From an uncultured Gammaproteobacteria bacterium (GTDB lineage: Bacteria; Patescibacteriota; Patescibacteriia; Veblenbacterales; UBA10138): a stretch of 35,201 nt of DNA. The notes under the pieces were generated by a model. The model did no database searches. It was not told where the DNA came from and was given only the letters and a program-made list of their open reading frames with translations. Below are positions 1 through 30,178 of the stretch, in pieces. The stretch covers positions 1 to 35,201 of the forward strand of contig CAZGYI010000001.1 in assembly GCA_964530635.1 (NCBI GenBank), in the 5' to 3' direction. The stretch's first letter is position 1. Every line of letters starts with the position of its first letter. Both the position numbers and the translations under genes were made by a program.

Positions 1-1543
1 CAATATTAGCAGCTTCATTAATAGTATTAGCTAATCTCCAAAAAATATTATAAGTAGTAGTACTGCCCACGCGGGGCGGCAACGGCCCTGAACCTATTTT
101 AATCAACTGATCTGTGTAATATCTACCTTCGGCCTGAATTGATAATTGTGTGTTGATTTTTGTAATTATAGTATTGGATTCAGTAGCCACCGGCTGTAAT
201 TTATCCCCTACTAGCTGTTCGGCGCGAGCTTTGACACTAGTATTAAAACTATAAGGCGCCATATTATTAGGGGCTATACTAACCACTTTCATGCGAAAAT
301 TAATACTACCCTTAGACCCAGGCATTATATTAGCTAAACTAGGTATTTGCTCTTTAGTCCAAACAACCAAACCTTCTTCTGGTTTAAACGCGGCTGAGGT
401 ATCGGTTTGCCAAGATGTCCAATCCAACAACTGCGAATCTAACTTAGCTTCTAATACTAAATTAACCAAAACTATTTCTCCTTCGTTAGCATAGCGCAGT
501 TCAAAATCTATTTGTTCCCCCCAATCAGCATAGCTTTTTAGTGCCACCTGATTGGCAGTTAATGATAAGGTTAAATGTGATTCAATCAAAGTTATTGAAA
601 TTTTCTTTTCTTCTTGAATAGTAAAAGTATTATCCTCATTAATAACGCCAATAGCTATTAAAAAATTCTGAATACCAGCATTGGCTGAAGTAGTAAATCT
701 TCCCTTAAATTCCAATTCGCCAAAACTTTTAGCTGGTAAATCCTCTAATTTCCATAGATTTGTTTCCCCAATCACTGAATCTAATCTAGGTAAATCTAGT
801 TCAAAACCATTGGGATTGGTTAATTTTAATGCCAAATTAGGAAGCATCGCTGTAGAAGTATTATTATACTTAACTTTTAAAACCAAATCTTGGTCAAAGG
901 GTAATTGTGCTGGAGCCACTAAATCTACCGTCACCACTGAGGCTATTAATTCCGTGGAAAAAAATACTGTTTTGGCGAACTGCGCCCTAAAATTCTCTGG
1001 CTCATAAGTAAAAACTGCTGCTAATTTCTTAATCTCGCCAACTTCGCCAACTAACTGACCAGTTATAATTAGTTCGCCGCTACCCTTAGCCTTCACCTGC
1101 CCCAACATAAATCTAGTTTTAGCTTCATCGTCGGCTGAAAGATTAGTTTCAGTTACAGTGAAACCTTCGGGATAGCGAAAATTAACTTCTAATAAACTCA
1201 AACCAACTCCCTGATCATTATTCCAAGATAAGGTATAATTAATGATTTGCCCTGAAGGAGCATTAACAGGTCCTGCTAATTTTACCTTAACCGCTTCTTC
1301 GCCAAATTTTGTATTTTGATCACTAAAAAACACAAACCAAATTCCACCTACAATAACTAACACTAATAAAGTGGTAGTCAGCCACAACCAACCGCGTTGA
1401 CGCGAGGCCTTCTTCCTTAAAATACGAAAATCCTCAGGCGGATCTTGACGATACATCTGTGCTAATTCACGTTCTGCTGCTTCAGTAGCCGATAGTGAAT
1501 TTTTAGGTTTTGATAAAGTATCTAAAACAGGACGACGAGCCAT
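1..1543 (-). CDS. Membrane-anchored surface protein with repeated beta-sandwich-like modules (DUF11/CARDB-like guess); C-terminus runs off the window
   Basis: Absent from the ORF track, presumably because it is open at the window edge. Hand translation from ATG 1543-1541 gives MARRPVLDTLSKPKNS...RQRGWLWLTTTLLVLVIVGGIWFVFF (one TM helix). It then continues without a stop to position 1. The ATG lies 4 nt after the recO stop, so it is probably co-transcribed. Confidence 0.6.
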   Translation of the reverse strand, partial: MARRPVLDTLSKPKNSLSATEAAERELAQMYRQDPPEDFRILRKKASRQRGWLWLTTTLLVLVIVGGIWFVFFSDQNTKFGEEAVKVKLAGPVNAPSGQIINYTLSWNNDQGVGLSLLEVNFRYPEGFTVTETNLSADDEAKTRFMLGQVKAKGSGELIITGQLVGEVGEIKKLAAVFTYEPENFRAQFAKTVFFSTELIASVVTVDLVAPAQLPFDQDLVLKVKYNNTSTAMLPNLALKLTNPNGFELDLPRLDSVIGETNLWKLEDLPAKSFGELEFKGRFTTSANAGIQNFLIAIGVINEDNTFTIQEEKKISITLIESHLTLSLTANQVALKSYADWGEQIDFELRYANEGEIVLVNLVLEAKLDSQLLDWTSWQTDTSAAFKPEEGLVVWTKEQIPSLANIMPGSKGSINFRMKVVSIAPNNMAPYSFNTSVKARAEQLVGDKLQPVATESNTIITKINTQLSIQAEGRYYTDQLIKIGSGPLPPRVGSTTTYNIFWRLANTINEAANI

Positions 1544-1547
1544 ATAA

Positions 1548-2294
1548 CTATAGAATACTACGTAATAATTTTAATGTATAGAGCTGGCGACCCGCTTGAC
1601 CCTGCACATAATCAATTAAAAATCCTAAAAGTTCAACCGGCAATTGACGCTGGTAAGGCGGATCAGCGCGGGTAGCCATAGTATGTAAGTAACTTAAAGC
1701 GTAGTCAGTTAACAAAAATAAACCCTTATCAGCAACGCATTTTTGATGATAAAAACTGTGTTCCTTAAAACTAAATACTACCGGTGCTGCTAACTCGCCC
1801 TGGCATTTTTGGCAACGAGTAACCTGAATAGCTAAACCGGTTATTTTTAATATCTTATAAATGAATCTGCCTAAAAAAATTCTGGCCCGTTCCCTCCAAA
1901 CTAGTTCTTCTTTAGGTAAATCTTTTAACTGGCTTAAATAATATTTTAAAGATTTTAATAATTCTGGTTCGGGAGCGCCTAAAGATGTCAGCACATCGGT
2001 AATTTCTAAAAATGAAGTTCCTAAAATAGCCGTATTTAGATGATAGGGCGTTTTTAAAAATATTTTTTTTAGTTCAGCGCCAGCTAACTTATCATATTTT
2101 TTACCCGGCGCTATCTGCACTTGAACCTCACCAAAAATTACCAAATGCGGTGCTAATTTGGATAAAATTTTGCGCGAACTAGTAGCCACTGCTTCCACCT
2201 TACCCCGCCGTTCAGTAAAAATCGTATATAACCGATCATTTTGTTTATAACTTTTAGCACGCAAAACTATGCCAGTAGTAGTATAAGTAGACAT
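1548..2294 (-). CDS. recO: DNA repair protein RecO
   Basis: 248 aa. The N-terminal OB-like region (TGIVLRAKSYKQNDRLYTIFTERRGKVEAV) and a C-terminal Cys cluster (CQKCQ...HQKC) are typical of RecO. It starts 3 nt after the ileS stop. Confidence 0.8.
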   Translation of the reverse strand: MSTYTTTGIVLRAKSYKQNDRLYTIFTERRGKVEAVATSSRKILSKLAPHLVIFGEVQVQIAPGKKYDKLAGAELKKIFLKTPYHLNTAILGTSFLEITDVLTSLGAPEPELLKSLKYYLSQLKDLPKEELVWRERARIFLGRFIYKILKITGLAIQVTRCQKCQGELAAPVVFSFKEHSFYHQKCVADKGLFLLTDYALSYLHTMATRADPPYQRQLPVELLGFLIDYVQGQAGRQLYTLKLLRSIL

Positions 2295-2297
2295 AAT

Positions 2298-5147
2298 TTA
2301 AACAAAACCAACTGTTACTTTTATACCTCTCAACTCAATAACACTATCCTGATTAGTCTCAGTAAATTCTATCTTACTGGCTAAAATATTCTTTATAACT
2401 AAATCTTTATTACTTTCCAATGTCACGCGTATTGAATCTGGTGAATTTATCTTTAAGATGACCTTATCTTTAACTGTTAATCCTTTATCTTTTCTTAAAG
2501 CATTCACTTGACGGATAAATTCGCGCACCAGACCCATCTCTTTAAGCTCTTCATTAATCATAGTATCAAGTTTGAAAGCGCTCCCTTTAACTACTTCTAA
2601 AACATTAATCTCCTCGGCAATAATACTTTGAAGATTTTCACTAAAATCAACTGCGGTAGTTAATTTTCTTAAAGGCTGTCTGACTTTAATACCCGCCTTG
2701 GCTCTTTCAGCTAAAGCTTGTTCAACCACCTCGCGTCCCTTAGCCATCTCGTTTAATATTTGATCGTCAATTATATCTTTTTTAGGCCAATCTTCTAAAT
2801 GCACTGATTCTTTACCACCGCGGACTCGCTGATATAATTCCTCAGCTATAAAAGGAGTAAAAGGTGCCAACAAAACCGACAAATTCTCCAACACAAACCC
2901 TAAAGTGGTAAGCGCTAAATTTTTATCATCGCTCCCTCCCTTAAATCGCTCACGACTACGCCTTAAATACCAAGTTGATAATTGAGTTACGAATTCAGTA
3001 ATTTTTCTGCTTGCTTCGGTAATTTCATATCTGTCTAAATGTTCAGTAACCTCATTAATTAATTTTTGCAATAAAGCTAAAATCCAACGGTCTAAAATAT
3101 TCGCTGATTTGGGCACTGTATTCGGCGCCGGAGAATTTTCTTGATACAACTCATAAAAAGTTAAAACATTAATTAAAATTAAAAAAGTACGTTTAATTAC
3201 TTCGTCCACTCCCATGGAATCAAAATTCTTTGGCTCACCCGGCTGATTGGCAGTATAAAAATGCCAACGCAGAGCATCAGCTCCATATTTTTGAAAAATT
3301 TCCCAAGGATCAACCACATTACCCTTGGATTTGGACATTTTCTGACCTAATTTGTCATTAATATGCCCCAAACAAATTACATTTTTATAAGGTGGATTAT
3401 CTTTAATCGCCCCTGATTTTTTAAGCAGAGTCGCCACTGCTACTAGTGTATAAAACCAACCTCGAGTTTGATCAATAGCTTCAGCAATAAAATCAGCTGG
3501 ATAACTTTGGGCTAGGAACGAGGAACTAGTGGCGAGATGAGGATACCCCCATTGAGCAAAAGGCATACTGCCTGAATCAAACCAACAATCAGCCACCTCT
3601 GGTACCCGTTTCATTTCACCCTTACCACATTTACAAAGCCAGGATATTTCGTCAACAAACGGTCTATGCGGATCAAAATTTTGATTTTTGATTTTTGATT
3701 TTTGATTTTCGTCTTCTACTAAATCCGCTAGTTCCTTTAAACTCCCTACACAGATTTGGTAGCCACACTGACTACATAACCAAATAGGTAACGGCGTTCC
3801 CCAATAGCGCTCACGTGAAATGGCCCAATCTTTAGCCCCTTCCAACCATTCACCAAACCGACCATACTTGATATGTTCTGGATACCAATTTATTTTCTCA
3901 TTAGCCGCTTTCATTTCTGCTCTTAAATCTGACATCTTAATAAACCAAGATGGTTTAGCATAGTAAAGCAGCGGCGTAGAACATCGCCAGCAAAAAGGAT
4001 AATCATGAGTATACATTTCTTCTTTAAACAACAAACCGCGCTGTTTTAAATCTTCAACTATTTCTGCTTCCACTTGTTTATCTTTGACAAATTTGCCAGC
4101 CCATTTGATTACCTCTTTAATAAAATAACCATTCTCTTGAACTGTATGATATTTAGGTAAACCGACTTTGGCACCCAAATTAAAATCATCCTCGCCATAC
4201 ATTACTGCTGTATGAACCACTCCTGTACCGTCTTCAGTGGTAACAAAATCTGCTTGATACACCTGGTACGATTTTTCGTTTTGTAAAGATTTAATATCAA
4301 AAAGTGGCTCATATTTTAATCCAACCAATTTTTTGCCAGGCATTTTTTCGACTATTTCATATTTTTTATCATTAAGCACATCTTTTATTCTGGCGCGAGC
4401 TAAAATTAAAAACTCGGAACCTACTTTCACTTTTTCGTACACGACATCACTACTGACAGCTAATGCCACATTACCTGGTAAAGTCCATGGTGTAGTTGTC
4501 CAAGATAAAATATAAGTATTGGGTTCTTCTACTAATTTAAATTTTAAATAAACAGATGGTTCAGTAACGCTTTTATACCCTAAGGCCACCTCGTGCGAAG
4601 AAAGTGCTGTGCCGCATCTGGGGCAATGCGGCAAAACTTTATAATCTTTATATAATAACCCAACCTCGTGAACTTTTTTCAAAATCCACCATAAACTTTC
4701 AATATAATAGTTTTCATAAGTCACATACGGATGCTCCAAATCCAGCCAAAAGCCCATACGCTCGGTTAATTTTTCCCAGTCAGCTTTATATTTCCAAACA
4801 TCTTCGCGGCAACGAGCATTAAATTTGGTTACGCCATATTTTTCAATATCTAGCTTACCGCGGAATTTAAGCTCTTTTTCCACTTGCAATTCTACTGGCA
4901 AACCTTGTGTATCCCAACCGGCCTTACGCGCTACCCGGTAACCCTGCATAGTTTTATAGCGTGGAATTAAATCTTTAAAAGCACGCGCCAACACATGATG
5001 AAGCCCAGGTTTGCCATTGGCAGTTGGCGGACCTTCAAAAAAAACAAAGCTTCCTTGAGGAGCTTTTTTCTCTAATGATTTTTGAAAAATATTATGCTTT
5101 TTCCAAAAATCCAAAATTCTTTCTTCAAGCTCGGAAAATTTAATCAT
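2298..5147 (-). CDS. ileS: Isoleucyl-tRNA synthetase (Thermus-like, probably type 2)
   Basis: Class I motifs PPTANGKPGLHHVLARAFKD and KMSKSKGN. CPRCGTALSSHEVALGYK and WFDSGSMP are characteristic of IleRS. The track start 5174 is a TTG inside a leader hairpin. I prefer ATG 5147 (MIKFSELEE) by alignment with the argS and rplT leaders. ATG 5156 is an alternative. Confidence 0.93.
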   Translation of the reverse strand: MIKFSELEERILDFWKKHNIFQKSLEKKAPQGSFVFFEGPPTANGKPGLHHVLARAFKDLIPRYKTMQGYRVARKAGWDTQGLPVELQVEKELKFRGKLDIEKYGVTKFNARCREDVWKYKADWEKLTERMGFWLDLEHPYVTYENYYIESLWWILKKVHEVGLLYKDYKVLPHCPRCGTALSSHEVALGYKSVTEPSVYLKFKLVEEPNTYILSWTTTPWTLPGNVALAVSSDVVYEKVKVGSEFLILARARIKDVLNDKKYEIVEKMPGKKLVGLKYEPLFDIKSLQNEKSYQVYQADFVTTEDGTGVVHTAVMYGEDDFNLGAKVGLPKYHTVQENGYFIKEVIKWAGKFVKDKQVEAEIVEDLKQRGLLFKEEMYTHDYPFCWRCSTPLLYYAKPSWFIKMSDLRAEMKAANEKINWYPEHIKYGRFGEWLEGAKDWAISRERYWGTPLPIWLCSQCGYQICVGSLKELADLVEDENQKSKIKNQNFDPHRPFVDEISWLCKCGKGEMKRVPEVADCWFDSGSMPFAQWGYPHLATSSSFLAQSYPADFIAEAIDQTRGWFYTLVAVATLLKKSGAIKDNPPYKNVICLGHINDKLGQKMSKSKGNVVDPWEIFQKYGADALRWHFYTANQPGEPKNFDSMGVDEVIKRTFLILINVLTFYELYQENSPAPNTVPKSANILDRWILALLQKLINEVTEHLDRYEITEASRKITEFVTQLSTWYLRRSRERFKGGSDDKNLALTTLGFVLENLSVLLAPFTPFIAEELYQRVRGGKESVHLEDWPKKDIIDDQILNEMAKGREVVEQALAERAKAGIKVRQPLRKLTTAVDFSENLQSIIAEEINVLEVVKGSAFKLDTMINEELKEMGLVREFIRQVNALRKDKGLTVKDKVILKINSPDSIRVTLESNKDLVIKNILASKIEFTETNQDSVIELRGIKVTVGFV

Positions 5148-5292
5148 ACCCCGCATATCAACCTTGCTCGCCAAAATTTAAGCGAGAGAAGTGTATTAAT
5201 GATAAATGCGTTAATCTAAGATTGAGCATAATTGATGTAGGGATTAGTATTTTGTCAATAAGTTTAAAAGCGAAGTTATATGACGGAACATA
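5148..5292 (-). promoter_or_regulatory. ileS promoter plus ~75-nt leader module, paralogous to the argS module
   Basis: Read on the minus strand: TTGACA (5258-5253), a 17-nt spacer, then the conserved TCAATTATGCTCAAT. The leader ends in hairpin CTCGC/GCGAG (5167-5171 with 5182-5186), then the box AAGGTTGATATGCGGGGT and the ATG. It is nearly identical to 7098-7208 plus 7355-7393, except in the 17-nt spacer. Confidence 0.6.
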
Positions 5293-5387
5293 ATGTTTTT
5301 ATTATAATAAAAAATTTACAAAAAAACAAGGCAAATACTTTAATAAAACATATTAACTATAAATAACCAACCCTCAACTTAATTTAG

Positions 5388-7097
5388 TTACATTTTTTCC
5401 ACCGTCTCTATCCCCAAGATACTCAAACCTCGCTTTAAAATCTCTGCTGAATATTTAACTAATTCTAAACGCCAAGAACGCAATGGTTCTGCTGCTTTTA
5501 ATACCGGCACCTCATGATAATAAGAATTAACGGAATTTGCTAAATCGTAAAGATAATTAGCTACTAGGTGTGGAGAATTTTCTTGAGCAATACGGATTAG
5601 AGCATCAGGGTATTGCACTAATTTTCTTAATAATTCTAAATCGCTGTCTTCCAAATATCTAGAATTAAATTTAAACTTTTTTATTTTTCCAGCTTTGGCT
5701 AAAATGCTTTTAAGGCGAACATAAGTATATTGCAAATACGGTCCACTATTACCAGTAAAAGATAACATTTTTTGCCAATTGAAAATTATATCAGTCAAAC
5801 GATTCTGCGAAAGATCATTGTATTTAATAGCACCCATACCTACCGCTTCAGCTACCCTAGCTTTGACAGCTGATGATAACTGGGGGTTCTTTTTTTGTAC
5901 TATTCGCCAAGCCAAATCTACTGCTTTATTAAACAACTCTTCCAATCTAATGATTTTTCCTTCACGAGTGGCCATTTTTTTACCGTCTGCACCGAACACA
6001 AAACCAAATTTTATGTGCTGCGCTTTGGTTTTACCCAAATAACCAGCCAAGCTGGCTGTAGCAAATAATTGGTCAAAATATAAAGACTGCTCACTGCCCA
6101 CCACATAAAGCATCAACCAAGGTTTGTATCTATTAACGCGCGTTCTTAAAGCGGCTAAATCGCGGGTAGCATAAAGTGAAGCACCATCGGATTTTTGCAC
6201 CAGCATTGCCGGCAACTTTTCATCATCAAACATTACTACCGCCGAACCATCTGAATTCTTAGTAACTATTTTTTGTTTAATCAAATCTTTAAGTACAGCC
6301 ATTAATGTCCGTTGATACATACTTTCACTTTCCCAGTGATTAAATTTTATTCCTAAACGTTGATATAACTGATTAAATTCCCTTAGGGAAAAGGTTTTAA
6401 ACATCTGCCAAATCGCCCGTAACTTAGGATTGCCATCTTCTAATTTTTTAAAAGCAAGCTGGGCTTCTTTTTCTAATTCAGGATACTTGATTGCTTGCTT
6501 ATGAAAATAAACATAAACTCTCAACATTTCAGTAATCGGATTCTTTTTTAAATTAACCTTACTGCCCCATTTTTGATAAGCCACCAAAAGTTTTCCGAAT
6601 TGTGTACCCCAATCACCTAAATAATTTAAACTGATTACTTTGGCGCCCAGAGCGCGATAAATATTAACCAAAGCCTGACCAATAATAGTAGAACGCAAGT
6701 GTCCGATATGCATAGGTTTGGCAATATTGGGCGAGGAATATTCAATCACAATTTTCTTGCCACGATACAATGGAAAAATTGCCGTTTCAACCTGTTTAAT
6801 TAATTCCTCATATAAAGCTTCTGATGATAAGAAAAAATTAACAAAACCAGGACCAGCTGGCTCAACTTTGGCAAAATGCTGACGAATAAATTTATTTTGT
6901 ACTAATTCCCCTACTAAAGTATCAGCTATCTGGCTGGTAGGCACCCCCCAACGCGCTGCTACTTTAAGCGCTACATTAGTGGTAAAATCTCCCTGCCACA
7001 ATTCCTTGGGACAGGCAATTTCTACATCTTCAACTGGTATTTGCCAATGAGCTTTTGCCACCTTACCAATTTCCTGTTGTAATCTTTTGATTAACAT
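5388..7097 (-). CDS. argS: Arginyl-tRNA synthetase
   Basis: SSPNIAKPMHIGHLRSTIIG (HIGH motif). The Arg-tRNA synthetase N-domain and C-terminal DALR-like anticodon-binding region follow the usual layout. The track start 7124 is a TTG in the leader hairpin. ATG 7097 (MLIKRLQQE) follows the conserved GTTGATAT box. Confidence 0.93.
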   Translation of the reverse strand: MLIKRLQQEIGKVAKAHWQIPVEDVEIACPKELWQGDFTTNVALKVAARWGVPTSQIADTLVGELVQNKFIRQHFAKVEPAGPGFVNFFLSSEALYEELIKQVETAIFPLYRGKKIVIEYSSPNIAKPMHIGHLRSTIIGQALVNIYRALGAKVISLNYLGDWGTQFGKLLVAYQKWGSKVNLKKNPITEMLRVYVYFHKQAIKYPELEKEAQLAFKKLEDGNPKLRAIWQMFKTFSLREFNQLYQRLGIKFNHWESESMYQRTLMAVLKDLIKQKIVTKNSDGSAVVMFDDEKLPAMLVQKSDGASLYATRDLAALRTRVNRYKPWLMLYVVGSEQSLYFDQLFATASLAGYLGKTKAQHIKFGFVFGADGKKMATREGKIIRLEELFNKAVDLAWRIVQKKNPQLSSAVKARVAEAVGMGAIKYNDLSQNRLTDIIFNWQKMLSFTGNSGPYLQYTYVRLKSILAKAGKIKKFKFNSRYLEDSDLELLRKLVQYPDALIRIAQENSPHLVANYLYDLANSVNSYYHEVPVLKAAEPLRSWRLELVKYSAEILKRGLSILGIETVEKM

Positions 7098-7393
7098 AAT
7101 CCGTATATCAACTTCGCTCGCCAAAATTTAAGCGAGAGAAGTGTATTAATGATAAATGCGTTAATCTAAAATTGAGCATAATTGAAGTTAAGAGAATAAT
7201 TTTGTCAAGCCGCGTCTGGCCGCTCGGTGGCTACCCATATGCCAAGCATATGGGTATGCCCGCCACCTCGCTGTCGTTTTGCGATCCAGACGCGGGAATA
7301 TCTATTTGCGCTCTGAGTCCCCAATGCCAAGCATTGGGGCGTGTCGCGAAGGCGGTCAATAAGTTTAAAAGCGAAGTTATATTACGGGAATAA
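7098..7393 (-). promoter_or_regulatory. argS promoter-leader module, second copy of the ileS module, interrupted by a 146-bp insertion
   Basis: 7098-7208 and 7355-7393 align base for base with 5148-5292. TTGACA is the reverse complement of 7203-7208. The hairpin is CTCGC/GCGAG, followed by the box GAAGTTGATATACGGATT and the ATG. Confidence 0.6.
7209..7354. mobile_element. MITE-like GC-rich structured insertion flanked by direct GTCAA copies
   Basis: Absent from the otherwise co-linear ileS module. GTCAA occurs at 7204-7208 and again at 7355-7359. Internal structure: a 10-bp stem (7210-7219 with 7286-7295), a 6-bp stem (7226-7231 with 7262-7267), and two paralogous 9-bp hairpins with a CAA triloop (7234-7254 and 7319-7339). 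Confidence 0.5.
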
Positions 7394-7439
7394 CAATTTT
7401 ATTATAGCAGAAATCTTAGTTTATTACTTCATAACAAGA

Positions 7440-7620
7440 ATAAATTAATAAATCTGCCCCTATCACGCAAGACCCGCTGCGCAACGCGAGTTGACAAACG
7501 TGGGCACGAGCGTGTTCTGGTCACTTTTGCATAGCGGGCGCCAACGAGCCAACGAGCACTACTCGGGCCTTGCGCGCCTGAATGGTAATCTTTTTATTAC
7601 TTCTTCTAAAGAAGTAATAA
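7440..7620. repeat. GC-rich structured repeat, family X copy 1, plus a 12-bp AT hairpin; ncRNA or non-autonomous element
   Basis: Roughly 75 percent identical by eye to 29899-30005, e.g. GCTGCG..AGTTG.C.AACG.GGGC.CGAGCGTGTT...TGCATAGCG.GCGCCA..GAGCCA. Closing helix is CGCAAGaCCC (about 7466-7475) with GGGcCTTGCG (about 7565-7574). Perfect hairpin 7594-7605 with 7609-7620. Confidence 0.5.
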
Positions 7621-7639
7621 AAATATCTAAAAATTAAAA

Positions 7640-7698
7640 ATAAACTCAAAAATCCCGATGTCCGCCCTTAGCCTGTCGGCAAAGGCAAACAATCGGGG
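7640..7698 (-). terminator. Probable rho-independent terminator after rplT, with a large structured loop
   Basis: Minus strand stem CCCGAT/ATCGGG (7692-7697 with 7654-7659), followed by ATTTTTGAGTTTATTTTT. Confidence 0.5.
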
Positions 7699-7725
7699 CC
7701 TGATCAACAATAAAAAATTTACCAA

Positions 7726-8079
7726 CTATGACTTGGACTTTACCAGTTCTACTACTTTAGCAAAAACAACTGGATGCTCTTGGGCTAATTGAGATAAAAT
7801 CTTGCGATTTAAATTAACTTTGGCTTTTTTTAACAAATTAATAAATTGACTATAAGTTAAACCATGTTCCCTAACCGCGGCATTTAATCTAACAGTCCAT
7901 AACTTGCGAAATTCCCGCTTGCGGTTGCGGCGATCGCGATAAGCATAAACGCCAGCTTTGCGGGCGGCCACTTTAGCCAACTTAATTTTACTTTTACGGC
8001 CCCAACGATACCCCCTGGTACGCTTTAAAATATTTCTTACTCTTTTAGCGTGCATTAGCCCTCGTTTGACTCTTGACAT
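7726..8079 (-). CDS. rplT: 50S ribosomal protein L20
   Basis: MSRVKRGLMHAKRVRNILKRTRGYRWGRKS... is a canonical L20 N-terminus. 117 aa, ATG start. Confidence 0.95.
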   Translation of the reverse strand: MSRVKRGLMHAKRVRNILKRTRGYRWGRKSKIKLAKVAARKAGVYAYRDRRNRKREFRKLWTVRLNAAVREHGLTYSQFINLLKKAKVNLNRKILSQLAQEHPVVFAKVVELVKSKS

Positions 8080-8129
8080 ACCCAGTATATCAACTTTGCT
8101 CGCAAAAAAATTAGCGAGCTTGGGTTGAT
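8080..8129 (-). promoter_or_regulatory. rplT leader hairpin plus GTTGATAT box, third copy of the ileS/argS motif
   Basis: Minus strand reads ATCAAC-cca-AGCTCGC-taattttttt-GCGAGC-aaa-GTTGAT-ATACTGGGT-ATG. Helices are 8089-8094 with 8124-8129, and 8098-8103 with 8114-8119. Confidence 0.5.
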
Positions 8130-8267
8130 GAATTAATAATTAGTAATTGGATGATATTTAATCTCATGACGATTAATGAACTTATTTTTGCGCCAGTAGT
8201 GAGCTGAAGCAGAGTTGTATTACTGGGATAAATTAATAAACCTAAATTCTAATTTCTAAATCCTAAA

Positions 8268-8465
8268 TTAACTTCCAGGAATTAATTTTCTTAAAGCCTT
8301 TACATTAACATCGGCAATAATTGAATCGCGCCGTTTACCCATAGTCACCTTGCCTGATTCTCGCGCATTAAAATGATCCTGACCAGCAGTACGTTTTAAA
8401 AATTTACCGCGAGCAGAAATCTTAAATCTTTTAACTGTAGCTTGATGAGTTCTCTTCTTGGGCAT
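8268..8465 (-). CDS. rpmI: 50S ribosomal protein L35
   Basis: MPKKRTHQATVKRFKISARGKFLKRTAGQDH is a canonical L35 sequence. 65 aa. Confidence 0.93.
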   Translation of the reverse strand: MPKKRTHQATVKRFKISARGKFLKRTAGQDHFNARESGKVTMGKRRDSIIADVNVKALRKLIPGS

Positions 8466-9522: not shown

Positions 9523-9904
9523 TGGTGGAGATGGCGGGAATTGCACCCGCGTCTAAGATGATGCCCCTTACTTGTCTACAGACATAGTCTGATTAATTTT
9601 GGCAGAAGTCAAATCAGACAAAAGCCCCTACCAAGTTGTCCTAGTATACTTTGGTTAACTGTTAGGACGCCAGCTAACCTGGCTCGATAAATGACGCTCT
9701 ATAAGACTATCGAGATCATCCTGCAGAACGGCTTCTGCTTAAAATTAAGCAAAAGCTGGTGCTAGAGTAAAGCCTGCAAAAGCATTCTTTACCCGAGCGA
9801 CAAATGATTTGGCATTTGTACAAGGTATCGCTTTTTTAACGAAGAGGCGAACACTTCGGTCTGCTGAATAAAGTTAATCAGCTTATCAATTGTTAAACAT
9901 CCCC
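9523..9904 (-). ncRNA. ssrA: tmRNA (SsrA), one-piece
   Basis: 5' end GGGGATG pairs with the 3' end CATCTCC, including the G3:U pair. T-arm GCGGG-TGCAATT-CCCGC followed by ACCA. The tag frame ends ...FAGFTLAPAFA-TAA, with the stop at 9747-9745. It lies next to smpB. Confidence 0.9.
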
Positions 9905-10451: not shown

Positions 10452-10609
10452 TGTCATTCCAAATTCCTGCCCGCCGTCCGCTTTCATCAATCTAAGTGCA
10501 AAATCGGTTCTAGCACATTGACAAGGGACGGAAGAAAATTCGAGCTTAGACTTTGGCAGGCGGATAGTTCGGAATCTATTATAGATTCTAAAACAAGTTC
10601 AGAATGACA
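10452..10609. repeat. Composite repeat: a family W element (inverted relative to 8509-8567) carrying a family Y module at 10466-10563
   Basis: 8-bp terminal inverted repeat TGTCATTC (10452-10459) with GAATGACA (10602-10609). The Y termini CCTGCCCGCCGTCCGC and CTTAGACTTTGGCAGGCGG are near-identical to those at 30006-30104. Confidence 0.5.
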
Positions 10610-11445: not shown

Positions 11446-11826
11446 TTATATTTCACCCCCTTTTTCTTCTCGCTCCCAACGATCAACAAATCTCCTGACT
11501 CGTTGGGAAAAATTATAGGTATCATCACTAAAAGCTATAACACCTAAACCCACCCGCCTAGCGTTGCCAGACACAATTGCCATTAAGCTGGACCCGACAA
11601 TAATACCGCGTAAATAGATACCACGCAGCCGAGGTATCAACCAAGTGAGAGTAACGATGATACAAATAACATCGAATGGGGTGGGAAGATTAATAAGACG
11701 AGCAGCTCCTACAAGTAAGGCGACCGGTGAAATTAGAGCGATCAAAAAAAATACAAAACGAACAATTTTATGTGACATTATACATGTCCCTTTCTTTATT
11801 TTGTTAAACATTATTTTTATTTTCAA
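11446..11826 (-). CDS. Hypothetical small membrane protein
   Basis: 126 aa with 3 hydrophobic segments. The start is uncertain; ATG 11778 (MSHKIV...) is an alternative. Confidence 0.5.
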   Translation of the reverse strand: MKIKIMFNKIKKGTCIMSHKIVRFVFFLIALISPVALLVGAARLINLPTPFDVICIIVTLTWLIPRLRGIYLRGIIVGSSLMAIVSGNARRVGLGVIAFSDDTYNFSQRVRRFVDRWEREEKGGEI

Positions 11827-12013
11827 TTTTAAAAGTACAACTTTTCATACTACACCAAAACCCCAATCTTGTCAAGCCCAAAGGGTTCCCTGATGGCAAG
11901 CATCGGGCTTGCTGATCTGTTTTACTGGAACAGAACTTTATCTCGCCCGCCGAAACGCTTGGTTAACTTGACTCTACCCCCCTACCACAGTTCGCTATTC
12001 TTCCTACAAACCC

Positions 12014-13229: not shown

Positions 13230-16200
13230 GCCCTAATTGAGCTTTGGCTTCTTTAATTAAATCCTCTGCCTGAAATTGCTTTTCTAATAACTCTGCTCTT
13301 TCTATAAGCGCCTGGCCGCTAGCCTTACTTACCGCTAACCCATCCAAATTCTCACCAATGCTGCCAGACAAGGTGCCTTGAGATAATTTGCCAGCCAAAG
13401 TTTGATTTAATTCCTGATACAATTTATCAATCATCACTTGTTGTTCACCGCCGTAGCTGCCTTTAAAATCTGCTAGCGACGCTTTAGCATCTAGTGATAA
13501 TACTCTTTCTACTAAACTATGATCGCGGGCAGCTGGAATTATTTCAAATCTATTTTTTAATAATCTTACATAATCAGCCAGTTCAGTTTGTGCTTTTTGA
13601 GCTACTTCATAAGTTTGATTTACAGCAACATCGTCAAATTTACTTTTACTAATAAATTCTACTGCCAAATTTTTATTAGTAGCTGGCGATAATAATTTGG
13701 TTTTTAATTCTAAACCATCAGTAACGCGATTATACTTTACCATCTTGGCTACATAATTATAATCAACTTCTTGCCAACCAGTTTTATATAAAACAATACC
13801 CTGATCATGCATTTTTTCTATTTGCTCACAAGTAATCTGCTCTAAGTGACCTTTAATATACTCGCCCAAATTATGATCGCGCATAAATTCCGGAGCTTGC
13901 TGACCTAGTTTATCAACTGCTTGTCTGATGATGGCTAGGGACGACTCGTTAAAAGCACCATTGTTAAATTCAGCTCCCAAACCGCGACTAAAAATTATTT
14001 TATCACCAGTATCCCAACTTTTACCCACCTCACCCACTATCTGATCCAAGACTTTGGCTTCCTGCCCTATTTGCTGATACATCGCCTGCGCTTGCTCTAA
14101 TAATTGGGTACTAGATTTACCTGGCTCCAAAGACACCTGGTCTAATACTTGTTTATCATCAATATCATACAAGAAATAAGTATCAACCTGACCATCACCA
14201 TTAATATCCACCGCTCGCATACTAATATCTGATAAATCGGCGTCGGCTGACAATTCACTGGGCAGCGCTTCGCGCCAAGCAACTACTTTATCTGACCACT
14301 GGGGAAATTCTGCCTGATGCCAATTAGTACCAACCTCTGCGGGTACCGAGGATTCTATTGAGGACCCGGCTGAAGTTTTTTCCACATGCTCATAAATATC
14401 ATTTTGACCAATACCCTTACCAAACTCATAATGCCATTTGCCATCACCACCTTTGGTTAATTCAATTTGTTTACCAATAGCTGACGCTTTTAAGCGTAAA
14501 TCATAAATCTCGCCGGCTTTAGTTGCGCCTACCACGGTGCTATCGCCAATTTTGGTATTAAACGCTGCTTCGTGCGCTAATTTGTTAGCAAAAGATTGTA
14601 CTTCGGCTTTGTTGCCAAGATCACCGGTAAAACCAAATTTTTCAGGATTATCCAAAATTTGCTGAATACCTTTAGTTTCAATTCCCTCGCCCGCTTTAAC
14701 AGTATAAAGATCAGGATTAATGTTTTCCAAAGAAACAGCAGGTGCTTTAACTTCCGCAGTAGTTGCTGCCTGGCTTAATTTTTCTGCTTCTTGAGCAGCT
14801 TGAATTTTATCTATACGAATTATACCCGTTATAGCCGTAACTCCGGCAGTAACAGTACCAGCACTTATTGACCAGATTACCCGTTTCAAAGCATTCTTAC
14901 GCTGTTTATCTAATTGAATTTCCTGGGCTTTATTAAATTCCTGCTGCTTTTCAAAAACTTTATTTAAATATGCTTCAGCGGCTTGCTCAGGAGTTAATTC
15001 CCTATCCTGCGTAACCGCCCGTGCTTCAGTTTTAATATTCTCATGATATTTCTGTTCCAATAACTCAATGGTTTTACCTGTTAATTCTTGGGTTGACTGT
15101 TTAACATCTTTCTTTAACTTCATTTTTTTTGCCAAGACACCAAACATTTCTGACATTCTACCATAACTGATAGCTTGCTTTGCTTCAGTTACTCCTTTGC
15201 TTTCGCCAATATTTCTAATACGGGCTAATTCTGTTACCACTTCTTGTGGTGATAATTGGTTAACTTGCTCCTTAAGGTAATTAGTTATTTCTTGTTCACC
15301 AGTTTTGGTTTTCCTTGCTTCTTTGGCTATAGCTCCCACTTTGCCTTTTTCTTGCTTACTAGCCATTATTGCCTCTGTAGTCATTCCGGCGCCAGCGCCC
15401 GAAAGAGCTGTTCTAGCAGACACCAAACCTGTTGATACTCCTCCTAAACCAGTATAAGCAGTAATCACTGAACCTGCGGTTAAGGCGGCACCAACAGCTA
15501 TGCGTAATTTGGGATTTAACTTATTATATTTTTCTTTAAATTTTTGCCAATTACCTTTATCTTTACCTAATATTAACTCATTCACTTTTTGCAATTCCTG
15601 TTGCTGGGCATTATTAACTAAATCAATTATCGCCTGTTGCCTTTCCTGCTCATTTTTACCTTGAAAATCCGCTATTTCTTTAAGTACTGCAATATCTATT
15701 TTAACTTGACGCCTTATTATCTCATTTTTTGCTTGCTCATATTTTTCACCCAATTGCCTTAACTGGTCATCTGGTAAGATCTTTTTCCTAGAAAAAATGG
15801 CCCGCTTGCTAGCTTTGGCGCCAAAATAATCCTGGCGGCTTTTTTCTAAATCTTGTTCCAGTATAAATAAAGTCTCGGAATCTGCTGGGGGAATTGATCC
15901 TGGTTCAGGGGAAACTGGAGGATTTTCTGGCTCTATACTCTTCTTCTCTTCTTGGGACTTATAAATGATTTCATCAAATAATAATCCACTTATGCTTCCC
16001 TCAATATTTACGTACAATTTTCCATCAGTCCCCCAGCCAGCTATTCCAGTAATGACTACTGGATTGTCACCTGTTTGTTTATTACGCCAAACAGCTGGAC
16101 CTAATTTGACTTTAGCTTCTTCAATTTTCCTTTTTTCTAAAGTTTCTTCTATTAATGATTCGCCCTGGACTAGAGCTTCTTCTTTTCCTACTTTGTCTTT

Positions 16201-19266: not shown

Positions 19267-19420
19267 ATTTTTATTTTACTATTAGTTTTTTAGTTTTTGA
19301 TTTACTCTTTAATTATACATCAAACTTTAAAAAAAATCAAGTTAAAACAAACTAATGGATTGGCCTTGAATAAAAAAAATAACCATGTTACTATACATTC
19401 GCTTGCAATTTTTATCTTTT

Positions 19421-19682
19421 GGGCCCGTGGTGCCCCGAACAAGTCCGCTTGTGGCGGACAGTACGGGACGGGTAGCCTGGTTAACTCCGAAGAAGTTTCG
19501 CTTCGCTCAACTCTACGGGGCACTGCACGTTACCAAGTTGATGATAATTCTAAACAAAGCGGGCTCGTGGTGTAGCCCGGTTAACACGTCTCCCTGTCAC
19601 GGAGAAGATCGCCGGTTCGAATCCGGTCGAGCCCGCTTTGTTTAGAAGATCGTCCCGATTGAAATCGGGATCGGGCCCGCCA
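19421..19682 (+). ncRNA. Expanded tRNA-Asp-like cloverleaf enclosing the functional tRNA-Asp gene; candidate structured RNA or decayed paralog
   Basis: Acceptor stem GGGCCCG (19421-19427) with CGGGCCC (19672-19678), followed by an encoded GCCA. D-stem GTGC (19430-19433) with GCAC (19520-19523). Anticodon-stem TCTAA (19549-19553) with TTAGA (19643-19647). T-arm-like TCCCGA-TTGAAA-TCGGGA (19653-19670). See findings. Confidence 0.4.
19561..19635 (+). tRNA. tRNA-Asp (anticodon GUC)
   Basis: Hand-folded cloverleaf: GGGCTCG-TG-GTGT-AGCCCGGTTA-ACAC-G-TCTCC-CTGTCAC-GGAGA-AGATC-GCCGG-TTCGAAT-CCGGT-CGAGCCC-G. CCA is not encoded. Confidence 0.9.
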
Positions 19683-19795
19683 CCCTTCGCTAATCTCCTA
19701 CGTTAAAAACTTCGGAAGATCAAGAAGCTACGGGATGGTAAGCAGGTATATTTTGGCCATCTCCACCAACTGGCGGATGAAGGTGATTTTTAGGT
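19661..19795 (+). repeat. Family Z copy 1: tRNA 3'-end-like sequence plus a conserved downstream block and a weak terminator
   Basis: GAAATCGGGATCGGGCCCGCCACCCTTCGCTAA ... AGCTACGGGATGGTAAGCAGG parallels 20604-20656. It carries a roughly 32-nt extra insert. It ends CCACC..GGTGATTTTT. Confidence 0.45.
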
Positions 19796-20562: not shown

Positions 20563-20700
20563 CTAAACCAAGTTCCAACCCCGAATAGTATCCGCTCTGG
20601 GCGGAAATCCGGTCGGGCCCACCACCCTTCGCTAAAAGCTACGGGGTGGCAAGCCAGCTAAAGTTGGAACCTTAAAACCACCTGATGAGGGTGGTTTTTT
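20563..20700 (+). ncRNA. Candidate small RNA or family Z copy 2, with its own terminator
   Basis: TATAAT boxes at 20539-20544 and 20551-20556. Outer helix GTTCCAAC (20572-20579) with GTTGGAAC (20663-20670). Inner helices CCGC/GCGG and CCACCC/GGGTGG. Contains a tRNA-Asp 3'-end-like TCCGGTCGGGCCCACCA. Terminator CCACC-tgatgag-GGTGG plus T6 (20678-20700). Confidence 0.4.
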
Positions 20701-29898: not shown

Positions 29899-30178
29899 TT
29901 AATATTGCCACCATCGCGTAAGCCTGCTGCGGAGCGGAAGTTGGCGAACGCGGGCGCGAGCGTGTTGCGTCCTTGCTGCATAGCGAGCGCCAGTGAGCCA
30001 AACGACCTGCCCGCCGTCCGCCTTCCTCTATGAAGGTGTGGAGATAAAGTGTTTTTAGTTGACGATGAATGGAAGTAATCACCAACTTAGACTTTGGCAG
30101 GCGGGGCACCGCTCAGGCTGAAGCGCCTAGGTGGCGATTCTTTCTGCTATTTCTTTAAAAGAAATGGCAAAGAAATAA
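29899..30178. repeat. Family X copy 2 carrying a nested family Y module (30006-30104), plus an AT hairpin
   Basis: 29899-30005 aligns with 7447-7555. Y termini are CCTGCCCGCCGTCCGCC (30006-) and CTTAGACTTTGGCAGGCGG (30086-30104). Long-range segmented helix: GCCACC/GGTGGC, GCG/CGC, GCCTG/CAGGC and GCGG/CCGC, between about 29905-29933 and 30107-30137. Confidence 0.5.

Follow-up and report, generated by a model that had tools for sequence, protein, structure and literature searches.

The 35,201-nt stretch analyzed here (contig CAZGYI010000001.1; 37% G+C) is called the window throughout and is all of the host genome that the searches covered. It carries recO, ileS, argS, rplT, infC, tmRNA, and smpB on its minus strand, and upstream of argS lies a G+C-rich, hairpin-forming insert whose nature and setting are the subject of this work. 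An initial annotation of this DNA had described 146 bp of extra DNA at argS, with a co-linear empty site at ileS. A repeat search together with a three-way alignment confirmed this description: positions 5145–5258 matched 7095–7208 at 88%, and 5254–5286 matched 7355–7387 at 97%, so that argS has exactly 146 extra bases, 7209–7354. The pentanucleotide GTCAA bounds the insert, at 7204–7208 and again at 7355–7359, just where the annotation had placed it.

The 146-bp Insert Upstream of argS

The G+C content of the insert was 61%, compared with 33% and 22% in its flanks, in keeping with the enrichment noted at the outset. A 10-bp outer stem pairs CCGCGTCTGG at 7210 with CCAGACGCGG at 7286, and an inner stem pairs GGTGGC at 7226 with GCCACC at 7262. 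There are also two 9-bp hairpins, with arms CCCATATGC at 7234 and GCATATGGG at 7246 in one and CCCCAATGC at 7319 and GCATTGGGG at 7331 in the other; both share the core ATGCCAAGCAT and the general form CCCnnATGC-TTG-GCATnnGGG. They differ at two stem positions, and at each the opposite arm has changed to match. All of the stems named in the annotation, including the paralogous hairpins with their compensatory differences, were therefore present. The insert folded far better than shuffled sequence on both strands (z = −4.5 and −4.6; 0 of 200 shuffles were as good), and chance was expected to produce the hairpin motif only 0.09 times in the window.

Both 9-bp hairpins (7339–7319 and 7254–7234) read on the minus strand, and the ends that contain them are distinct. 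In the sense of tnpA, the transposase gene of the related elements described below, the target pentanucleotide TTGAC (7355–7359, minus strand; GTCAA on the plus strand) stands directly 5′ of the left end (LE; 7305–7354, minus strand). The LE is composed of a 15-nt spacer, cgccttcgcgacacg, the hairpin CCCCAATGC-TTG-GCATTGGGG, and then ACTCAGAGCGC. A GC-rich linker (7262–7304, minus strand) takes the place of tnpA, has no similarity to TnpA, and in the predicted fold contributes the 5′ arms of the outer stem (CCGCGTCTGG, 7295–7286) and of the GGTGGC/GCCACC stem. The right end (RE; 7204–7261, minus strand) consists of the hairpin CCCATATGC-TTG-GCATATGGG, a 25-nt spacer, and a terminal C-TTGAC (7208–7204), followed by A at 7203.

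A tblastn search of the window with the TnpA of these related elements gave nothing below E 0.4, in agreement with the earlier statement that the window lacks a transposase gene. No second copy of the insert was detected in the window by repeat search or by a pattern search for its outer stem allowing 3 mismatches, and a hairpin scan of viral contigs returned 0 matches. At the gathering threshold, Rfam recognized tmRNA and tRNA-Asp alone in the window.

The Insert and the Shared Upstream DNA Are Absent from Relatives

We compared the argS locus with those of three relatives, the candidate phyla radiation (CPR; Patescibacteria) metagenome-assembled genome (MAG) loci L001/L002, L003, and L004, whose ArgS proteins are 83%, 81%, and 69% identical to that of the window. 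In L001, L003, and L004, argS is preceded by ...TTTCTGCTATAATAAAGTTGCTT-ATG, and ileS in the relatives is preceded by ...ACTATAATAAAAACATT-ATG; at both genes the −10 box stands 9–10 nt from the ATG with nothing between. The window retains both promoter strings. The ancestral extended −10 promoter of argS, TGCTATAAT (7401–7409, minus strand), recurs unchanged in L001 and L003, where it lies 10 nt before the ATG; in the window it is now ∼300 nt from the argS ATG; the ileS promoter keeps its TATAAT at 5306–5301. Promoter and ATG in the window are separated by ∼140 nt at ileS and ∼291 nt at argS.

Because the promoter directly precedes the ATG in the relatives, the argS insert is absent there, and the upstream region common to ileS and argS is itself an insertion. 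The annotation was accordingly right to see a mobile-element insertion with an empty paralogous site, either never filled or precisely excised, which at ileS reads TTGAC|AAAA, and a look at argS in L001, L003, and L004 bears it out. The two co-linear upstream regions that it compared do not look like paralogous regulatory DNA; each is apparently a copy of a different mobile element, hereafter the cassette. BLAST searches of the relatives' loci with the insert and with the cassette gave no match.

A Family of Elements with IS200/IS605-type Ends

The hairpin pattern CCCNNATGCCAAGCATNNGGG was used to scan a database sampled at one genome per species, and at least 107 stretches were returned. Of the matches listed, about half stood alone in unrelated genomes, most of them high in G+C, and are put down to chance. 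The others clustered in particular MAGs: among the matches listed, hairpin-bearing contigs numbered at least 8 in the Patescibacteria MAG JAHITV01, at least 5 in each of Uhrbacteria PFJC01 and JAUYFP01, at least 4 in each of JBBTZY01, DOPF01, and Elusimicrobia MGVS01, and at least 3 in Saccharibacteria CAYZMA01; Elusimicrobia DHVG01 and Omnitrophota JBDRCZ01 also had the hairpin. Many of these matches lay ∼100 nt from a contig end, as expected because repeats break assemblies.

In the genomes with clustered matches, every listed hairpin fell into one of two contexts. The first is TTGAC-N14–16-hairpin followed by a(a/g)tcagagc or aaggatagc, with 29 cases that include window positions 7359–7305, and the second is hairpin-N11–26-cTTGAC, with 19 cases that include 7254–7204. 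TTGAC therefore precedes all 29 LEs, 14–16 nt before the hairpin, and closes each of the 19 REs. The members of full length, L067, L059, and L050, measure ∼560 bp, and between their two ends lies an open reading frame (ORF) of 135–136 aa. This ORF matched Pfam Y1_Tnp (PF01797) with E values of 1e-30 to 1e-36. The closest solved structure to the family TnpA was 2xm3 (E 1e-22), labeled just "transposase" in the output, which we take to be ISDra2 TnpA.

We built profile hidden Markov models of LE and RE (nhmmer) from other genomes only, leaving the window out. The LE profile matched 7359–7308 over its full length (E 2.7e-15), and the RE profile matched 7258–7203 (E 3.3e-5), in the correct order and on the correct strand; the relatives' loci gave no match to either profile. 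The LE of the insert aligned with those of the tnpA-bearing L067, L011, and L018. A gene-less copy with two hairpins was also present in L045, where the hairpins are 84 nt apart (85 nt in the window), and REs with a long spacer and an enclosing stem were found in L024 and L091.

Taken together, the homology of the ends, the TTGAC contexts, and the relatives that encode a Y1 TnpA indicate that the insert is, very probably, a non-autonomous, protein-less derivative of an IS200/IS605-family element, of the type called palindrome-associated transposable elements (PATEs). It lies with tnpA-sense on the argS coding strand. The annotation had offered this possibility, a palindrome-associated IS200/IS605-type element 3′ of TTGAC, as one of two, and the homology of the ends to those of Y1-TnpA-encoding elements favors it.

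The window also has a solo RE-like remnant at 11870–11912 on the minus strand, with hairpin GCCCGATGC-TTG-CCATCAGGG, 12 nt, C-TTGAC, and then A. It was recognized by the RE profile (11912–11870, E 1.6e-6), its hairpin matched with 2 mismatches, and it forms TTGACA-17 nt-TAGTAT upstream of the ORF 11446–11826. Six mini-elements of ∼55 bp, each a single hairpin with TTGAC on either side, were present among the matches listed. Their form is TTGAC-N16-hairpin-N12–14-TTGAC, in L085, L060, L009, and L007 of MAG JAUYFP01 and in L046 and L058 of PFJC01, and they look like REP-like (repetitive extragenic palindromic) end products of PATE reduction.

These single-hairpin units (L085, L060, L009) are one reason to consider that the insert might be a repeat of the REP type, or of the related bacterial interspersed mosaic element (BIME) type, on which a domesticated REP-associated tyrosine transposase (RAYT) acts, and not a derivative of an IS200-type transposon. 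GC-rich extragenic palindromes in an AT-rich genome would suit this account, and RAYTs also match Pfam Y1_Tnp. In contrast to a RAYT, the family protein scored 129.8 bits on the NCBIfam model transpos_IS200 (NF033573; cutoff 55) and only 38.6 bits on REP_Tyr_transpos (cutoff 80), passing the first and failing the second. The tnpA-bearing unit is moreover multi-copy and breaks assemblies (at least 8 contigs in JAHITV01), and the hairpins that flank tnpA lie on the same strand, in direct LE...RE order, at a TTGAC target. We therefore regard a RAYT-handled repeat as very unlikely.

The second possibility raised in the annotation was a classical MITE (a miniature transposable element with inverted repeats), a deletion derivative of a DDE-transposase insertion sequence with terminal inverted repeats; on insertion it would have duplicated a 5-bp target, GTCAA. 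A direct 5-bp repeat does flank the 146 bp, and ileS has a single copy of it. However, inverted repeats are lacking at the ends (when the reverse complement of the final 25 nt was aligned locally with the initial 25 nt, the best score was 5), the full-length relatives encode a Y1 TnpA and not a DDE enzyme, and the same pentanucleotide flanks the ∼50 family members listed from many genomes, which marks it as a target and terminus motif. A MITE origin was accordingly given very little weight. A conserved cis-regulatory RNA or DNA of argS, such as a riboswitch, T-box-like leader, or attenuator that was lost at ileS, would account for a highly structured sequence between promoter and start codon on the coding strand, but it is refuted for practical purposes by the lack of the insert at argS in L001, L003, and L004, the lack of a relevant Rfam match over 5100–8400 even at E ≤ 10, and the homologous ends found in other phyla, where they lie beside unrelated genes and enclose a transposase.

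Several observations weigh against the assignment to a PATE-type IS200/IS605 derivative. Within the 35 kb there is only one complete copy, plus the solo RE remnant. The RE spacer is 25 nt long, compared with 11–15 nt in most members, and the RE hairpin is the variant CCCATATGC. In IS608, each hairpin has on its 5′ side bases that pair with the cleavage site. Most ends of this family have CAA(G/A), that is CAAG or CAAA, at this position, complementary to the TTG of TTGAC; those of the window read CACG (LE) and CATA (RE). Because of the atypical right end and these variant bases, the window copy may be decayed and immobile. Finally, the flanking and terminal pentanucleotides are identical, so that a target plus terminus looks the same as a 5-bp duplication, and the letters alone fit an element of either 7204–7354 or 7209–7359, depending on the active strand.

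TTGAC Targets and the −35 Hexamer

TTGAC resembles a −35 box, and the annotation had proposed that the element inserted exactly at the −35 box of argS and regenerated TTGACA. We examined the flanks across the whole family. At ileS the empty site reads TTGAC|A, and of 25 distinct flanks, 23 have A as the base that follows the RE. In 12 of the 25, a −10-like hexamer comes at 16–18 nt, counted when it had A2 and T6 and matched at 4 or more of 6 positions; 500 shuffles of the flanks gave 4.0 ± 1.8 such cases and never more than 10. L079 (TTGACA-17-TATAAT) and L085 (TTGACA-16-TATAAT) are examples. These flanks indicate that the IS200-type family tends to sit in −35 hexamers and to give back TTGACA in register. 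We infer that the pattern reflects specificity for TTGAC together with the survival of promoter-neutral insertions in compact genomes.

The proposal did not hold for argS itself. The hexamers 16–18 nt after the argS TTGACA are TTCAAT and TCAATT, neither of which was reported by a promoter scan; nor did the scan support reading TTGACA at 7209–7204 or 5259–5254 as a −35 box paired with a −10. This TTGACA, with no acceptable −10, sits in a cassette that the relatives lack. Elsewhere among the cassette copies, the corresponding bases read CGGCAAA, CAACCACC, or GTTCTGC and form one strand of a covarying stem with a downstream partner. Since these bases vary and are stem-paired, the argS TTGACA is no conserved promoter box, and the IS200-type element just met a TTGAC inside the cassette. 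Regeneration of TTGACA stands as a property of the family but not as a repair of the argS promoter. A search for a terminator-like site on the argS coding strand found none.

A Cassette at Start Codons

Three cassette copies were found in the window, all on the minus strand. The ileS copy (5149–5288) contains the empty TTGAC|A site, with TTGAC at 5258–5254, and is flanked by TATG at 5292–5289 and 5148–5145. The argS copy (7099–7389, ∼140 nt as 7389–7360 plus 7203–7099) is split by the IS200-type element, and its terminal TATG (7098–7095) contains the argS start codon; the predicted fold keeps its terminal stem. A diverged copy precedes rplT (8081–8227), reading CCCAGTAATACAAC ... GTTGATATACTGGG and then TATG. 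In L001, L003, and L004, the argS promoter leads directly into (T)TATG and the cassette is absent. A fourth copy lies before secA (L034, 907–1040).

The cassette starts with CCC(N)GTAATA(C/T)AAC and ends with GTTGATAT(A/G)C(N)GGG followed by TATG; its form can be written CCCNGTAATACAAC ... GTTGATATACNGGG, flanked by (T)ATG. A scan of metagenomes with the pattern GCRARGTTGATATRCNGGGTATG gave 75 matches on 64 contigs, mostly from groundwater (L112–L175). The body has a modal length of 138 nt, and tandem arrays have a period of 142–143 nt. TATG follows 86 of 89 right ends in the loci, and (T/C)ATG precedes the left ends. A 17-bp stem joins the two ends; four of its pairs covary, its 3 × 3 internal loop is invariant, and one of the covarying pairs is AU in 23 copies, CG in 12, GC in 12, and GU in 4.

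In essentially every non-tandem cassette, the terminal ATG opens a real gene, and the orientation of the cassette relative to that gene is fixed. The host genes, dozens of them with housekeeping functions, include pheS, mreB, mraZ, serS, secA, ruvA, smpB, many ribosomal protein genes, and others, and the Pfam domains of their products begin at residues 1–20 in 10 of the 10 tested. A second, related type of terminal repeat, CCCAGTAACAA...TTGTTACTGGG (141 bp), is found in L001, where it occupies the start codon of the gene that comes after recO. There, 16005–16152 reads CCTAGTAACAA...TTGTTACTGGG with ATG on either side, and the corresponding window site (1541–1550, minus strand) is intact, TAGTTATATG|GCT.

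We also considered whether the cassettes mark leaderless transcription starts and rejected this, as the histogram of TANNNT distances upstream of the left ATG had no single peak. Some copies lie 2–4 nt after the stop codon of the upstream gene (L001, 16005). These two observations indicate that the target is the start codon and not the promoter. A role of GTTGATATACTGGG as an outward extended −10 promoter (TGATATACT) was likewise discarded, the last base of the hexamer being the covarying N (T, C, G, or A). The cassette had no match in Rfam and none in the literature searched on start-codon MITEs. The ileS, argS, and rplT cassettes look like copies of a mobile element whose insertions fall exactly at start codons.

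GIY-YIG-encoding Relatives of the Cassette

Longer elements of ∼310 bp, with cassette-type terminal repeats and an ORF of 90–100 aa for a GIY-YIG (UPF0213-like) protein, were found at L185 1201–1512, L188 1201–1517, L176 1501–1965, and L164 640–949 (minus strand), the last being 310 bp long with a 90-aa ORF. The ORF has the ATG of the host gene as its start, and its N terminus, MPSN.., is encoded by the terminal repeat. Of the terminal repeats CCCAGTAA...TTACTGGG, one occupies the opening codons and the other comes shortly after the stop, and the host genes (fpg, dnaE, an ABC permease gene, and a glycosyltransferase gene) restart at a duplicated ATG 9–12 nt after that stop. The junctions read ATG|CCCAGTAATACAAC...GIY-YIG...GTTGA|TATACTGGG|ATG-fpg, ...TAG|TTGTTACTAGG|ATG-dnaE, and ...|TATG|cassette|TATG-ABC permease; at the permease, the spacing between the GIY-YIG ORF and the called start differs between samples.

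The protein domain is Pfam PF01541, and the closest solved structures were the UPF0213 proteins BH0048 and EF2693, followed by SLX1 and I-TevI. The L164 protein had 256 homologues, of which ∼50 of the 120 listed start with MPSN(N/K/T)TS, that is, ATG plus the terminal repeat; 45 others listed are called from an inner Met and lack the extension as annotated. We rejected the idea that every small GIY-YIG gene is such an element, since those upstream of infC in L001, L131, and L152 have no terminal repeats.

The ∼310-bp elements are candidate autonomous partners of the cassette, and by their shared terminal repeats the 138-nt cassettes would be non-autonomous derivatives of them. The junctions can be read as those of elements that duplicate the ATG and use the host initiation signals for their own ORF, with the host gene restarting a few bases downstream. 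The literature searched held nothing relevant on start-codon insertion or GIY-YIG transposons. The nearest published note describes GIY-YIG proteins in non-intron insertions of CPR rRNA genes (PMC11270868).

Discussion

Elements of the IS200 group of IS200/IS605, which have tnpA only and of which ISDra2 and IS608 are the best studied, share several features with the argS-insert family. The full-length relatives likewise encode a Y1 (HUH) TnpA, subterminal hairpins likewise lie at both ends on one strand without inverted terminal repeats, and insertion would likewise be 3′ of a fixed pentanucleotide, here TTGAC. The target of ISDra2 is TTGAT, and that of IS608 is TTAC. Unlike ISDra2 and IS608, the present family has a terminal pentanucleotide that equals its target, and this target is five-sixths of the σ70 −35 consensus. 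Its hosts are Patescibacteria, Elusimicrobia, and Omnitrophota, and unlike its parents the window copy is gene-less. In the literature searched, we found no published description of a CPR IS200 family with these features.

PATEs, which are IS200/IS605 derivatives lacking a gene, likewise consist of LE and RE hairpins alone and are presumed to be mobilized in trans; minimal elements of this kind have been described from G. stearothermophilus (PMC10055086). Unlike those PATEs, the window copy has a linker that adds a 10-bp outer stem around the RE hairpin, and its family includes the ∼55-bp single-hairpin forms and has no TnpB or omega-RNA, the latter because its parents are tnpA-only. REP and BIME sequences with their RAYTs are likewise short GC-rich extragenic palindromes tied to a Y1 protein (PMC8266576, PMC2817692); they differ from the argS-insert family, in addition to the model scores and the multi-copy tnpA unit above, in that its ends are differentiated into LE and RE.

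On the strength of homology to IS608 and ISDra2, a Y1 (HUH) TnpA encoded elsewhere would recognize both hairpins on single-stranded DNA. Transposition of IS200/IS605 elements through single-stranded intermediates, with recognition of subterminal structures, is described in the literature (PMC5027513, PMC6006769). The enzyme would cut 3′ of the flanking TTGAC (7359–7355) and 3′ of the terminal TTGAC, and the element, 7354–7204 (151 nt), would leave as a single-stranded circle and insert 3′ of another TTGAC without target duplication. With TTGAC as its last bases, an element that entered TTGAC|A would leave a whole TTGACA in register with the downstream DNA. At argS, the element would have landed on the TTGAC in the cassette copy and so now lies in the ∼300-nt region between native promoter and start codon. 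This chemistry, the choice of active strand, and any effect on argS expression are inferred, the mechanism from homology; the predicted argS transcript would carry the cassette terminal stem with the PATE hairpins inside.

The cassette resembles foldback MITEs of the Correia/NEMIS type in being a ∼138-nt foldback beside genes, with a 17-bp terminal stem, and its longer relatives resemble the small GIY-YIG nucleases (UPF0213/Slx1/I-TevI-type) in encoding a protein of ∼90–100 aa. Unlike Correia and NEMIS elements, it lies exactly at start codons with a 3–4-bp (T)ATG duplication and a fixed orientation, it forms tandem arrays with a 142-nt period, and the ORF of the element begins at the host ATG. 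For the combined proposal, a new class of start-codon mobile element together with a promoter-riding IS200 lineage that has a TTGAC target and supplies a replacement TTGAC, we think the balance tips slightly in favor.

On the reading preferred here, the insert is a routine IS200/IS605 miniature in hosts where the family is uncatalogued, and it warns annotators that GC-rich hairpin islands between CPR genes can be transposon ends and not RNAs. A TTGAC target combined with a TTGAC terminus suggests how transposons could persist in compact genomes, sitting in promoters and leaving them unbroken. If the proposal for the cassette is true, the start-codon elements would rank with the smallest autonomous mobile elements so far known, would represent a new use of a GIY-YIG nuclease, and would be a source of 5′ leaders before ribosomal protein and tRNA synthetase genes. 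Were both parts of the combined proposal true, streamlined CPR genomes would harbor two independent selfish elements, each of which rebuilds an expression signal at its landing site.

Additional Observations

Other repeats are present in the window. A GC-rich structured island at 7450–7594, downstream of rplT, has the core GC(C/T)ATGC..AAGGA..AACACG between covarying stems; a second copy lies at 29900–30053, and both close relatives have the island, again downstream of rplT, at L001 8808–8948 and L003 2606–2752. No Rfam family matched this island. A repeat unit at 10470–10565 and 30008–30104 begins with CCTGCCCGCCGTCCGC and ends with CTTAGACTTTGGCAGGCGG, the ends being complementary; each copy has TTGAC(A/G) and GGAAG downstream, and one adjoins the island at 29900–30053. 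Around tRNA-Asp, the GC-rich repeats D13 (19408–19534, 19640–19750, and 20566–20671) have GGGCCC(G/A)CCACCCTTCGCTA ... CTACGGG(A/G)TGG(C/T)AAGC in common; they may be fragments resembling tRNA, or a further family of small repeats.

The tmRNA gene at 9523–9904 on the minus strand was recognized by the Rfam model with 101.7 bits, and ARAGORN was silent there. In the relative L004, a bAvd and reverse transcriptase pair resembling a diversity-generating retroelement lies at 575–1987, ∼3 kb upstream of argS.

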